DNA of 37,224 bases from a virus. Lineage: Duplodnaviria; Heunggongvirae; Uroviricota; Caudoviricetes. Shown in pieces: positions 12,001-18,000 of the stretch; the stretch's first letter is position 1; the number at the start of each line of letters is the position of its first letter. The DNA lies in IMG/VR virus record IMGVR_UViG_2512047041_000009, positions 1 to 37,224 of that record. The stretch is one strand, 5' to 3'. A program made the position numbers.

Positions 12001-15000
12001 AGAAGGCTGGCAACAGATGCAACGCATCTGTTGCCCGGCCAGCATGACAAATAACGAGAAATGAACGTTCGGTTACAGGAGCAGGTACCCACTGTCCTCC
12101 AACAATATTTCATCTTCATATCCGACGGAACAAGACTTACCCTGCCGGGATGTACAGAATAACAACAGAGTGATAATTAATTTCTGATGAAATAATCAGG
12201 GTGCAGAAGGACTAAAGATAAACGTTTTCTTCACGCCTTTACACGGCCTGTCCTTCTCAAATCGCCATTTTGCCATCGCCTTTACAACCTGCTCATCAAA
12301 CAAATGGTGCGGCTCTGAACGGATAAACTCAATTCGGGTGACAGTACCATCAGCACCAATATCAAACTTCACATCAACCCGTCCCTTTATATAATTTGCC
12401 GCTGCATAGGCCGGATATTGTGGTAATGCCTTAACCAACTGTCGGGGCATATCTGTTTTATGTTGCGTACAGCCCATAACCAGAGAAGACAACAAAATAA
12501 TTAACGGAAGATTTCTTTTCATTTTCATTCCCGGCACAGATAAGAATAAGTCTTATTCTAACAATGCCACCCTGTCGATCATTAATCCTCTGCTTAATGG
12601 CAACGACAATTATCCGGCTTAAATCACAAATCAGACACATGACATAACAGGGCTTGCGAGGTAACACATCGTCCGGTTTCTTCCACCATCGCACCGGACC
12701 AGCGACCATGAGGGGACAACGCCGCGCTCCGTTAACGCGGTAAACCCCGGTGTGTATCGTTTTTGATTATCCCCGCACACTCGCGCAGAGGAGTCTCCCT
12801 GTCGGGCTGCGGTCTCTGTTAATGCGGGGATACGGCGACAATACCGCGCATCAGCAAAACTTATTTCAGGCACTGAGTGCGGATATATTCCTGCGCCACT
12901 TCCAGTTGCTTCTGCATCGTCATCAACCGCTCTCTGAGAGTGAAATAATCCCGTTCAGCGGTGTCTGCCAGTCGGGGGCCGGTTGCATTATCCACGCCGG
13001 AGGTGCCGGTGGCTTCACGCACGGTACCGGGGCAGGTGGCGTTGATCCGCAGGCGCTTACGACCAGCGGCAACATCAGCGCGCAGAGTTTCATTTTCAGC
13101 TCTCGCATCGGCTAATTCCCTCGAGTATCTGGCATCAAGTGCAGCAACATCACGCTGGCGCTGCTGCATATCAGTAATGGTTGCATTTGCCAGCTCCAGC
13201 TCTCTGGCTTTTTTATCGCGCTGCGCTTTGTAAGTGATGGCGTTATCGCGGTAATGATTCAGCCCCAGACTAAGCGCACCACAGGCCACCAGCAGAGCAA
13301 TGATGACCACACACAGAACGCGGTTCATTTCACCACCAACGGATTGCCCAGATCAGAACAGCAATGGCTATAATACGAATGGCAAAGGCTGCCGCTCTTG
13401 TTAAATCCAGACAGGCTGGCGTCTCCACTTCAATGCCTTTCATAATGGACAACCTCAGAAAGAATCTTTTATACTTCCTCACAGGGAAAGCACCTCCCTC
13501 ACCATAATTTCTCCCTTGCCTTACTCAAGGTCAGAAAACACAAAACCCCGCTTGCAGCCAACAAACGGGGTTTTTACTTTTATTCACTTAGTTTTTGTCA
13601 GTTCGCAGGATTTCGTGTTATCCGCCCGCGTGGTCATTCCTCATTTTTCAGCAAAATATTCTGCTTATCTGTCGATACCCCAGCACGCCAGCGCGCTCTC
13701 CTGGTCACGACGGGATACCTGACCGTAACAGTTATTTGAGCGAATACGGCAGTCTCTGCCACCGTCCTTAATCCACCAGCGAATCGCTTCGCAGGCACCT
13801 TTTCGATCACCTGCATTAATTCGTCTGTAAAACGTCGACGGGAAACACTTACCGGGACCAATGTTGTACGGACAGAATGACGCGATCCCCGCTTTCTGGG
13901 GTTCGGTCAGCGGCACTCTGATGTTTTTCTCCACCCACGCCAGCGCTTTATCACGCTCAATGGCGTTAACCTGGTCGCATTTTTCCTTCGACAACTTCAT
14001 GCCCGGAACGACAGGTTTGCCATCCACCATGATGGCACCACGGCAGATGGTCCAGATACCTGCACCATCACGGTATGCCGTGGTGTGGTTGCCTTCCTTT
14101 TCATCCAGAAACTGGTCGAGAATGTCAGGCGCAGGCGCACCAGCGGCAATCAGCGCCAGAACGGCAGCCGACAGGCCGTATTTGATTTTGGTGTTCATGG
14201 ATATATTAAATATTCAGCCGCTGTCCCTGGCCCACTAAATACGCACTTTAAGATAAGTCAGCCCCGGATGAAGCCAGTAAGCCGGCACTTTTTTAAAGGG
14301 TGGAGTATTAAAATCACGAAGAAGAGCCTCCCGCACAATTGCATCCTTATCAGCACCACTGGCCAGCGCTTCAATCTCAGCGGCTACCTGAAGATATCCC
14401 ATGCAACGGCCAACGCGCTTCATCAGCCCCTGCTTTTTATTGTTCTTCAGGTAATCAATGGCAAATTCAATGAGCTCCTCACTGTGCTGGTGCGATGGAG
14501 GTGTTACTTTCCCATTTTCTGAGATGGTTATTTTCCCAGCATCACCGGATACAACAAAGGATGGCCGGTTACACTCCCATTCCAGCTCACTGAAATTATC
14601 ATTATGAATACTGAAACACTCTGCGAGATTTCTGCTCATCACTTTCCGACAATAATCGTCAAACGCAGCAAACTGCTCATCGCGGCGTTTTTCTTCAGGC
14701 CGCTGAAGATGCTCTTTCAATCGTGAAGCGCAGCTTAGATGCCCGCGCGATCAAGAATAGCTTCTTTCATTTCATCTGCTGCAAGCACCTCATTTTTTGT
14801 TGGGGCGCTTTTTTTCAATTCAGCGATATAGCGCTCCAGTTTTTCAATACGTGATTCAACATCATCTTTTTCTGACCGCAGTGTTGACGGCGGCATCTTC
14901 AGAGCATCAGTAATTCTTCCCGGTAGCTTTCCTTTGTAGGTTATCAACACATCCTGCGCCTCTAAAATTATGGGGCGCTTTTCCGGCAACGGTTCGTTCC

Positions 15001-18000
15001 CTTCACATAACCCGGCAGCAACATCCATGAAAAACTGCTTCGCCTGCTTTTTCGCCTCAGCTTCGTAAAACTCCAGCGTGGCACCTTCAGTACGGTCAAG
15101 ACTAATCGCCACATTTGGCAACAACAGTGACGGATACCCACCAATTTCCAGTACCACAGTAACAGTAATCTTATCCGGGTAATTATTTATCCCTTTAACA
15201 ACCAGTTCGTATTTTTTCTTCATCGCTTTACTCTCCCCGCGCCGCCTTACGCCGGTCCTCTCTGATTTTGAAATACAGGTTAGTCAGGTACGTCAGCAGC
15301 CCAAACAGCAGACTCCCCAGCACGCCTATTGCCGCCCACTGAGACGGGGAAACCCTGTCCAGCAACTGCAGGAACCAGTAGCCCGTTCCCACCGCTGACG
15401 TGGTGTATGACACACCTGTTGTGATTTTTTCCATCTGGTACATACCCCGTCTCCCGTTATCCGGAAGCTCACAACAACAAGTGGGGCATCAGCTCACACC
15501 GACACCCCCTGCGCATGGTTACATCATCATTTCGCCGTCAGGCTGAGGCTCTTCACTACCGTCAGGCTGAGACCCGACGCCATCTGAAACAGTACTGTCA
15601 TCCGCAATGCCTTCCGGCTCCGGAACCGCTGGTACGCCCAGCAGCTCATCCAGAATGGCATCCACTTCTGCATCAAGACGCGCCTCAAGGTTCTGGCGGA
15701 GTTTCTGTTTCAGTGCGCTCAGGACTTCTTCAGAGCGCAGGACTTCCTTCACTGCCTCAGCAGTGACCAGGGATGTGATTTCTGACATGGGATTTTCTCG
15801 TTGAAAGGTGTTGTCAAGAAAGTGACTACGGAATGAGCGGATCTTCGGGTTTGCTTCCGGCTGACTGACTGGCGCTGATTCTCTCAGCGGCCCTTTTATC
15901 AATCTGCCTGCGCCAGAAATCGCGCACTGCCCTGTACCCACCCGAAAGAAGATACATAACACAGACTGCCGTACAGAAGTACAGCATCACCTGATGAATA
16001 AATGTCATAATTTCTTACCGTTATGGTTGACAATGAGAACTGTTTTCATTTAAAAAACCGATATACGAAAGCATCTTTTCTTTACATTCTCCATTGGGAT
16101 TACCTCCGCCAGCTTCCATTCCTGCCGCTGGCGGCCTTTTTTTATCATGCCGCGGCATCCGCGTTGTTCACTTCCACCTTCACACTGTCAATCAGCAGCG
16201 TATATGTCGCCGCCTTTGATATGCCTGTCAGTTGCAGTTTGTCCGCCGCCCCTGATGCCGGAGATTTCACCAGTGTGAACGGCGTCCCCCGTTTCTCATC
16301 CAGTACCGGCGTCACCTGAATGCTGTTGTTTCCGGCAAACTCAAAAGCCAGTGTGTGCCATCCGTTATCAAAGACCCCGAACGTATCCAGCTTCGCATTC
16401 GGCTTCTTGTGGTGCATCGCGTTCAGGTTCGTCGCATCCGTCTGCAGGAAGAAGGACATCAGCATGTCGTTGCCTTCCTCTGCCAGCGTCACTCCCTCCG
16501 GCAGGGACGACAACTGCCAGTAAATGCCCAGGGCAAACTGATTCGGCACCAGTGAACCCGGCAACTTAAACCGTACGCTCACACGTCCCCCCTTCTTCAG
16601 TAACTCCACTCCCTGTCCGGCTGCATCATGCTCCAGAAACCAGATGTGGTTTTCCGGTTTATTCAGTTGCAGGGCCTTACCTCCCGTAGCCCCCGCATCA
16701 CTGACCACCGCTTCAGCAATGTTTTTGTTAACATTGTCTCCGCTCGCCGGTTTGTGATAATAGCGCCAGCCCTGTGATGCCAGGTCTTCGCCGGACGCCA
16801 GCAGACTCATCAGGGTTCGGTTACTGACCGGGGCTTCCGGCTCTCTCTCCGTACCTTCACCGGAAGGTCCGGTGGGCTTCACCGTATCAGGCTGTTTTCC
16901 GGTAATGAATTCAGCGTTTCTCCCGGCATGCACAAGAATCGCCGTTGCCAGACGGTCGGAAATAATCCCACGACGTGCCCATGATCCAAAATGCGTTTTA
17001 CGGTCAGCCGTCGTCCAGGTTTTGGCGTCCGTTCGACCACCGGCTCCGTAATACCCAATATCCGCAACATCCGGATCTTCTGACGGCTCGTTGGTACCCA
17101 CATTTCGCCCGTTTTCATCCGTCATAAACGGCACAAAGAAGATTTTTTTTGCGGATTTCGTCTTGTATGCACCATACACCGCATCGTATTGCGAAGAATA
17201 AGTCTGCTTCCAGTAGTAGGTCGTGTCGCCACAAATCCAGGGAACTGATGACGGAGAGCCCCCGAGACACTGACCTCCGAATTCCGACAGGTCAGAACGA
17301 TATTTTTCCACCATGGAATCAAACAGCCCCGGCTGAGTGGCGTATGCACCCTGTTTCAAATCAAACTCGCCCTGCATCCAGACCACTGCAAGCAGAATAT
17401 TTTTAGGGTTGGCCTTCAGTGCGGCCTGAGTACGGGTAAGCAGGTCCTTGTACAGTGGCTTATCTACACCCCAGCGTGCCGAGGTCTCGCTTGCGCCGGT
17501 GGATTCGCTGAAGGTACCTTCATCGCCCGCCAAAAATGCAGAACCACCACGGCAGCACGGAACCAGAAGAATACCGGCATTCGCCGGAATAAACGGCAAC
17601 AATTTCTTCGCGATATGTAATCCCTGCCCCACGCATCCATACTGAGCTGCGCTGGCTTTCGGGTGTGAAAACTTACTCAAATCCTGAACATCATGCAGGC
17701 AGTGGTCCGCAGGAATAATGTCATTGTAGTTACAGGACGCACCACCCGGCGTGACAGTGCTGCGACGCGCCAGCTGTTTAATACGCGGGTCCGGACGGTC
17801 ATATGTCTCCGGCAGCGGAAGCCCTTCACCATACGCCATACCGTTTGACTGCCCGGCCAGGGCAACAACAAAGTAATACTCCGGGTTGCTGGTGGTGCTG
17901 ATAACTGCGCCTTCTCCATCCGACGGCTTCACCACCACAGGTGTGGTGACATCACCTTCCGCCGCAATGGCCTGCATCAGGGTATAAGGCGTGATGGCCA

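Follow-up and report, generated by a model that had tools for sequence, protein, structure and literature searches.

A YdfR-family (DUF1327) gene, very probably split by a frameshift, between the holin and endolysin genes of an Escherichia coli prophage

The sole experimental lead on what the YdfR family does concerns the E. coli K-12 protein (b1555), encoded in the Qin cryptic prophage in the gene order essQ–ydfR–rrrQ. K-12 YdfR binds residues 1–597/598 of RNase E in two-hybrid and co-purification experiments, RNA co-purifies with it, and the interaction surface lies within YdfR amino acids 1–72 (PMC13232886). This interaction was detected in overexpression assays; overproduction of YdfR altered few transcripts and left growth unaffected (PMC13232886). 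Another phage protein, T4 Srd, has been reported to interact with RNase E at its N-terminal half and to change the decay of host RNA (Qi et al. 2015, cited in PMC13232886). In the literature, DUF1327 receives passing mention in one paper, and ‘YDFR’ mostly denotes a melanoma cell line.

Here we analysed a window of 37,224 nt, positions 1–37,224 of IMG/VR record IMGVR_UViG_2512047041_000009 (Caudoviricetes). It matches a prophage of E. coli CE10 throughout (100% identity, 0 mismatches) and carries its lysis cassette on the minus strand. The S21-type class II holin (pinholin; 15228–15443, 71 aa, with a MYQM dual-start motif) matches PF04971 in Pfam (9e-33) and the holin families phrog_9876 and phrog_20 in PHROG, and is labelled ‘class II holin family protein’ in RefSeq. 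The SAR-type endolysin (13665–14198, 177 aa, with an N-terminal Ala/Gly-rich hydrophobic segment) matches the lysozyme family PF00959 (2.4e-24) and the endolysin family phrog_7, while the ORF list places the Rz spanin gene at 12861–13328 (RefSeq ‘lysis protein’) with Rz1 embedded in it at 12923–13108. Two same-strand ORFs lie between holin and endolysin: ORF1 (14735–15223, 162 aa, ATG start) and ORF2 (14235–14720, 161 aa, TTG start). As the initial annotation described, ORF1 begins 4 nt after the holin stop, the ORF2 TTG follows the ORF1 stop by 14 nt, and the endolysin starts 36 nt beyond ORF2. Its reading of ORF1 as translationally coupled to the holin also holds, as the Shine–Dalgarno sequence GGGGAGAG (15231–15238, read from the sequence) lies within the 3' end of the holin gene, with GGAG at 15233–15236 placed 9 nt upstream of the ATG at 15223. 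On inspection of the sequence, no Shine–Dalgarno precedes the ORF2 TTG or its internal GTG and ATG codons, leaving ORF2 without credible start signals as previously noted, and the 36-nt gap ahead of the endolysin likewise contains none.

Both ORFs had been described as lacking any recognisable motif. For ORF1 this is mistaken: its amino acids 1–100 match PF07041 (DUF1327) at 147.7 bits against a gathering cut-off of 25 (E 1.2e-43), and it is 45% identical to K-12 YdfR over amino acids 1–74 (E 4e-21). It comprises a DUF1327 domain (amino acids 1–75; AlphaFold2 pLDDT 60–84), a linker and a coiled coil, and RefSeq carries it as a ‘YdfR family protein’ pseudogene; the locus is already known, being annotated as a pseudogene, and its gene family is ubiquitous in prophages. 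NCBIfam gave sub-threshold matches only, far under its curated cut-offs.

The earlier count of two genes was not borne out. The comparisons show that positions 14235–15223 derive from a single long-form YdfR gene, 329 codons when intact, that a net 1-nt deletion in its linker has turned into a pseudogene or split allele. Long-form YdfR is taken here as phrog_1085 (268–333 aa), and its single 296-position profile covers both ORFs, with ORF1 at positions 1–151 and ORF2 at 140–296 (3e-103). The N-terminal domain, coiled coil and C-terminal domain are present and collinear across ORF1 and ORF2 as in the long form, but one continuous reading frame is not, owing to the deletion at ~14742/14743. The lesion site (14739–14746) reads GCGCGGCGAATC in intact alleles and GCGCGGGCATC in the window, and lies in the inter-domain linker, where it shifts the frame. 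ORF1 consequently ends after 162 codons, of which the last three, like the stop, are read out of frame because of the deletion. The C-terminal domain is stranded in ORF2, whose frame is open from 14750. In contrast, one intact 329-codon ORF fills the same holin–endolysin interval in other E. coli strains and in a Stx2a phage (intact 329-aa ORFs lie at this place in L002 and L003), and the 90% cluster containing ORF2 is represented by an intact 329-aa protein (P0001). Among 15 evenly spread C-domain loci, 13 of them fetched and checked and two (H141 and H148) scored from a separate search, 14 had a single ORF and the only split was the window-type allele.

An error of sequencing or assembly in the source genome could produce the same appearance, given that the lesion falls within a G/C-rich run and that CE10 is an early-generation assembly with other ‘frameshifted’ genes. 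However, the window junction recurs exactly in 14 independently sequenced complete genomes (the intact junction is found in 47 exactly and 61 overall) and the exact 162-aa ORF1 product is encoded on 113 contigs. The window allele is therefore almost certainly not an artefact, and this explanation was rejected. A programmed −1 frameshift, through which the split allele would still yield the full-length protein, is highly improbable. The two frames do overlap by 16 nt (14735–14750), and shifting within the overlap would give back a near-native protein, but this stretch (UCGCGCGGGCAUCUAA; TCGCGCGGGCATCTAA) contains neither an X XXY YYZ slippery heptamer nor a homopolymer, and in most alleles a single frame encodes the protein. 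Programmed frameshifting was rejected because the overlap has no slippery motif.

The initial annotation had assumed that holin and endolysin are normally adjacent, and this is false for E. coli prophages. DUF1327 DNA is present in 3105 of 5426 complete E. coli genomes, and a holin–ydfR junction in at least 1306 of the 5426. The slot after a class II (S21-type) holin and before a lysozyme is shared by the window, K-12 Qin and 19 other E. coli or phage loci, with a holin-to-ydfR gap of 3–4 nt in K-12 Qin as in all the loci fetched, and in Stx phages a ydfR-family gene likewise follows the S21-type holin. A known DUF family, DUF1327/YdfR, is thus routine at this position in K-12 Qin and Stx phages, which is the finding that the initial annotation itself had named as refuting its proposal of cargo genes. 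That proposal, of two independent genes for defence, abortive infection or lysis timing inserted between otherwise adjacent lysis genes, is very improbable. Placement in the lysis cassette would indeed bring expression with the holin, but the ORFs are halves of one gene, which already refutes the gene count, the YdfR family is the default occupant of the slot with no insertion to explain, and K-12 YdfR can be overproduced without a growth defect (PMC13232886). A search of PADLOC-DB v2 returned no defence family for ORF1 or ORF2 at E up to 1, which speaks against a defence module. Similarly, Pfam and PHROG gave no holin or antiholin family match for either ORF product, and neither has a predicted transmembrane segment; both match solely families of unknown function, and their AlphaFold2 models are soluble alpha/beta folds.

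A decaying insertion had been suggested as well, and of this the decay comes close to the truth and the insertion does not hold, since the gene is frameshifted and the prophage defective, whereas the gene is a routine occupant of its slot. The CE10 portal and large terminase genes are also marked as frameshifted in RefSeq; the prophage bears further inactivating lesions and is decaying. ORF1 is presumably still made, as it retains the holin-coupled ribosome-binding site and resembles natural short YdfR forms. We infer that ORF2 is a remnant, translated barely or not at all. Two observations count against this reading. The last 330 nt of ORF2 are identical to those of intact alleles, so that it has not decayed since it was split off, and there are natural 185-aa forms consisting of coiled coil and C-domain, so that a stand-alone C-module can be functional.

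It is also conceivable, though unlikely, that the split is functional, with ORF1 serving as a short YdfR form, ORF2 translated by termination–reinitiation at the TTG 14 nt downstream, and the linker perhaps toggling the gene between fused and split states. At least four independent lesions are known, all in the linker and within nt 480–680 of the 987-nt gene (the window deletion itself, expansion of A8 to A9 on two backgrounds, its contraction to A7, and the loss of 2 nt), and the exact truncated products occur on 113, 107, 98, 75 and 1 contigs, compared with 64 contigs for one intact allele. In addition, the halves resemble natural stand-alone forms (the short YdfR and the 185-aa form without N-domain), and ORF1 and ORF2 are otherwise unbroken. 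However, the TTG and the internal GTG and ATG lack a Shine–Dalgarno, and the A8 homopolymer, a plain mutational hot spot, accounts for two of the three lesion sites. The split alleles are also near-identical to intact ones and hence recent, so that open ORFs carry no weight, the source prophage is decaying elsewhere as well, and only one of the 15 spread-sampled C-domain loci is split. A broader version of this idea, in which the YdfR family comprises modular late-operon effectors built from an N-domain that docks onto RNase E and a C-domain of orphan fold, the A8-containing linker of the 329-codon subtype is a hypermutable switch between a fused and a two-module state, and both window ORFs are expressed and functional, is more doubtful still.

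For the single frameshifted gene favoured here, the intact 329-aa product is a cytoplasmic protein made up of the DUF1327 domain, the coiled coil and the C-domain. The conserved C-terminal domain corresponds to ORF2 amino acids 50–161, and its AlphaFold2 core (pLDDT 83–93) is predicted to form three strands and four helices. It has no Pfam model, and no fold or sequence match points to an activity. Its distribution is very narrow (20 clusters at 50% identity in a set of 1.84 billion proteins), and dN/dS values of 0.15–0.36 indicate purifying selection, although they are uninformative on selection after the split because the window allele equals the intact ones across the C-domain. The full-length AlphaFold2 model is poor (pLDDT 47), and a Foldseek search of the PDB with it gave E values of 0.2 or worse throughout. 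Short matches resembling double-stranded RNA-binding domains (ADAR1 and RNase III; 36–62 columns) were among these and were not taken as evidence.

The mechanism by which the intact protein might act can be suggested by analogy. The DUF1327 domain may dock onto host RNase E at its catalytic N-terminal half, as published for K-12 YdfR, a step that draws on this 45%-identical homologue; RNA decay would then be modulated by a protein produced late, alongside the holin, and the C-terminal domain could serve as an additional effector or oligomerisation module. Taken jointly, these steps form a tentative proposal with rather less than an even chance of being right.

As originally posed, the locus matters little, being an ordinary one: a common E. 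coli prophage gene, present as a pseudogene in a defective prophage. The family is of wider relevance, as its genes adjoin lysis genes in over half of the E. coli genomes sequenced, Stx phages included. In addition, RefSeq systematically labels intact long forms of the gene as truncated pseudogenes, so that the C-domain is hidden from gene catalogues.

Among known systems, T4 Srd (and RapZ), as described in the source cited above, resembles YdfR in binding the N-terminal half of RNase E, a functional analogy for which no relationship of sequence or structure is claimed; Srd is an early protein of a lytic phage, whereas YdfR is the product of a late lambdoid gene whose part in RNA decay is only proposed. 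K-12 YdfR shares the position of the window gene, starting 4 nt past essQ, which encodes an S21-type holin, and directly preceding the lysozyme gene rrrQ, and has a homologous N-terminal domain, the region bearing the published RNase E-binding surface (PMC13232886). In contrast, it is a 103-aa short form without a C-terminal domain and overlaps rrrQ by 4 nt, while the gene in the window is a frameshifted long form of 329 codons, with a 36-nt gap to the endolysin that lacks a Shine–Dalgarno. Relatives in Salmonella enterica prophages (225–338 aa ‘hypothetical proteins’; for example, P0181, P0174 and P0187) are single genes with the same three-part architecture and a late-operon location, and their C-domain is ~40% identical, with the common motifs LKRLGRCMGLLQVAAEIEA, DFDNPPFK and W..PG..YLK. 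However, their N-domain falls under the Pfam threshold, and they occupy the interval between the Q antiterminator and holin genes rather than the holin–endolysin slot. Forms of 185–222 aa lacking the N-domain (coiled coil and C-domain; for example, WP_001015158.1 of O157:H7 SS17) occupy the same post-holin slot and share the C-domain, the last 330 nt of one of them (L019) being identical to the window, but each begins at an ATG of its own, is coupled to the holin and retains the coiled coil, none of which applies to ORF2. Intact long forms, for example E. coli P0001/P0137 and BCI50300.1 (329 aa) of the Stx2a-converting phage Stx2_95, show 94.6% DNA identity across the whole interval. These share the flanks, start, stop and domain order of the window gene, and differ in being one continuous ORF where the window is one linker base short.

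The two minus-strand ORFs lying between the holin and the endolysin, ORF1 (14735-15223; 162 aa, ATG start) and ORF2 (14235-14720; 161 aa, TTG start), are a single gene and not the two genes proposed in the initial annotation. Both match phrog_1085, one 296-position profile, with ORF1 covering positions 1-151 (4e-76) and ORF2 positions 140-296 (3e-103), and the sole length difference in a three-way alignment with intact alleles is the net loss of one base in the window at ~14742/14743, three codons upstream of the ORF1 stop (intact alleles, GCGCGGCGAATC; window, GCGCGGGCATC). The ORF2 frame is open back to 14750 and the two frames therefore overlap by 16 nt, a stretch in which no slippery heptamer was found. 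The 90%-identity cluster holding the exact ORF2 sequence is represented by an intact 329-aa 'YdfR family protein'. ORF1, in which the initial annotation saw no recognisable motif, strongly matches DUF1327 (PF07041; 147.7 bits, cut-off 25). A sequencing artefact was ruled out, as the exact junction occurs in 14 complete genomes and the exact 162-aa product on 113 contigs.

On the minus strand, the cassette runs from an S21-type holin (15228-15443; Pfam PF04971, 9e-33) through ORF1 and ORF2 to a lysozyme-family endolysin whose N-terminal segment is rich in Ala and Gly (13665-14198; PF00959, 2.4e-24) and Rz/Rz1 (12861-13328/12923-13108). The reported spacings are exact (holin stop to ORF1 ATG, 4 nt; ORF1 stop to ORF2 TTG, 14 nt; ORF2 stop to endolysin ATG, 36 nt), the ORF1 ribosome-binding site does lie within the holin gene (GGAG at 15233-15236, 9 nt upstream of the ATG), and no Shine-Dalgarno sequence precedes the ORF2 TTG or its first in-frame GTG/ATG (codons 27 and 28). 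The initial account of the sequence itself was therefore accurate, and the observation, though real, was mis-parsed. An antisense ORF of 145 codons (14085-14522, plus strand) overlaps ORF2 and the endolysin start and stays open in L002 and L003 as well, two loci with an intact 329-aa ORF in the same slot; conserved coding on the sense strand most likely accounts for it. The ~336-nt gap between endolysin and Rz (13329-13664) contains an annotated 37-aa ORF (13330-13443) and a strong terminator-like hairpin of 14 pairs followed by a T-run (13542-13574, minus strand).

The window is identical to E. coli O7:K1 CE10 (NC_017646.1 2481859-2519082; 0 mismatches over 37,224 nt), where 14888-15223 already bears the RefSeq label of a 'YdfR family protein' pseudogene and 14235-14720 is listed as a hypothetical protein. 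The locus was thus already on record: it is a frameshifted member of a ubiquitous DUF family, found where that family usually sits, in a decaying prophage. RefSeq also marks frameshifts in the portal and large-terminase genes and truncation of the tape-measure gene and of a DNA methyltransferase gene (4149-6733, 8946-10608, 275-1159 and 19602-19898), so that the ydfR lesion is one of several in a prophage that appears defective. Its cargo includes genes for an OmpC-like porin (20391-21473, plus strand), a TolA-annotated protein (18693-19121, minus strand) and, immediately downstream of Rz, a TonB-family protein whose N-terminus resembles a lipobox (LVMGC; 12196-12522, minus strand), together with genes for tRNA-Arg and tRNA-Ile that lie downstream of the Q region (19400-19561, minus strand).

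Contrary to the initial premise, adjacency of holin and endolysin is not the norm in E. coli prophages: ydfR fills this slot in K-12 Qin, in Stx phages and in at least 1306 of 5426 complete genomes, the last identified by a 204-nt holin-ydfR junction probe (coverage ≥80%); holin and YdfR were adjacent in seven of eight evenly spread probe matches. DUF1327/YdfR is a known DUF family that routinely occupies this position, which refutes the initial reading by its own standard. For example, homologues are present in Stx1a, Stx2a and Stx2c phages, BP-4795, phage 86 and YYZ-2008, and adjoin the holin where annotation is shown (BP-4795, phage 86, Stx2_95 and other Stx phages). Across the 5426 genomes, DNA of the DUF1327 part occurs at 6634 places (3105 genomes), the S21-type holin at 8935 places (2450 genomes) and the conserved C-terminal domain (C-domain), carried here by ORF2, in 776 genomes.

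In both the alignments and an evenly spread C-domain sample, the entire holin-endolysin interval of the YdfR family is one ORF, the window-type allele excepted. The family is modular: short forms (~103-114 aa) comprise DUF1327 and a helix, whereas long forms (268, 287, 296 and 328-333 aa) add to DUF1327 a linker, a coiled coil and the C-domain. N-less forms (185-222 aa; 669-1226 in L019, L023, L024 and L026, 544-1212 in L028; e.g. O157:H7 SS17) retain only the coiled coil and C-domain (MNHEEMNQRFSRLENEIAELNKK...) and have an ATG of their own, located 3 nt past the end of the holin gene; this slot can therefore also hold the C-domain by itself, as a separate gene. Among 15 C-domain matches (13 fetched and checked; H141 and H148 scored from an earlier search), intact genes encoded 296 aa (six), 185 aa (four) and 268, 328, 329 (H148) and 222 aa (one each), and only the window-type allele (H141) was split. 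Among E. coli alleles the C-domain is under purifying selection (dN/dS 0.15-0.36). RefSeq/PGAP calls intact long forms (268-329 codons in one open frame; L002 3077-4066; L016-L018 and L020-L022 336-1226; L025; L027) 'incomplete, missing C-terminus' pseudogenes, covering only the first 225-336 nt, so that the entire C-domain, amounting to 500-650 nt of conserved coding sequence, goes unannotated.

Further lesions in the 329-codon subtype all fall in the linker, at positions corresponding to ~14690-14700 and 14620, and comprise A8 to A9 on two N-terminal backgrounds (L011, L013), A8 to A7 (L012) and a 2-nt deletion (L014). The exact truncated products occur on 107, 98, 75 and 1 contigs (L011, L013, L012 and L014, respectively), and one intact 329-aa allele on 64. 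This clustering is the sole mildly unexpected observation. A functional split of ydfR is nevertheless improbable. The A8 homopolymer (interrupted in the window: GAAGAAAAAC) amounts to an ordinary mutational hot spot, and the split alleles are recent, the last 330 nt of the gene in the window being identical to those of intact genes; the lesions are therefore read as ordinary decay of a gene without selection in the lysogen.

Direct involvement in lysis timing or defence, as initially suggested, finds no support, since ORF1 and ORF2 contained no membrane segment and matched no lysis family or PADLOC model. As part of the Q-dependent late operon, ydfR shares a transcript with the holin gene, to which its translation is coupled. 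ORF1 retains this start along with the complete DUF1327 domain and the coiled coil, and so resembles natural short forms. K-12 YdfR has been found to bind RNase E at its N-terminal catalytic half (two-hybrid, StrepTactin co-purification) through a surface within residues 1-72, and RNA co-purifies with YdfR. Overproduction of YdfR altered few transcripts and left growth unaffected; the authors liken binders of this half to T4 Srd and RapZ (PMC13232886). ORF1 shares 45% identity with K-12 YdfR across exactly the interaction region, and by analogy we tentatively suggest that a late-made YdfR-family protein would dock on RNase E and carry the C-domain as an extra module. The full-length AF2 model was poor (pLDDT 47), with a better N-domain (three strands and a helix, pLDDT 60-84), and a more diverse alignment gave a usable C-domain model (mean pLDDT 72.7, core 83-93) with a predicted three-stranded sheet followed by four helices. 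Neither BFVD structures (best E 0.35) nor a profile search of PDB sequences (best E 0.2) yielded an informative neighbour of the C-domain.

When 1.84 billion representative proteins were searched exhaustively with HMMER, only 20 clusters of ORF2 relatives were recovered. The distant ones (~40% identity) come from Salmonella enterica prophages, each being a single 225-338-aa gene that shares the three-part architecture, and a hicAB toxin-antitoxin pair adjoins the gene in two of three distinct contexts (L005, L009). These relatives are sited between the genes for the Q antiterminator and the holin (L005, L007, L009 4001-4966), whereas the E. coli forms follow the holin. In K-12 Qin (L004), essQ is followed after 4 nt by a short ydfR, then rrrQ and rzpQ/rzoQ, and ydfR and rrrQ overlap by 4 nt with ATGA coupling (4055-4058); in contrast, an identical 36-nt gap (14199-14234 in the window) without a Shine-Dalgarno sequence precedes the endolysin in all long-form alleles.
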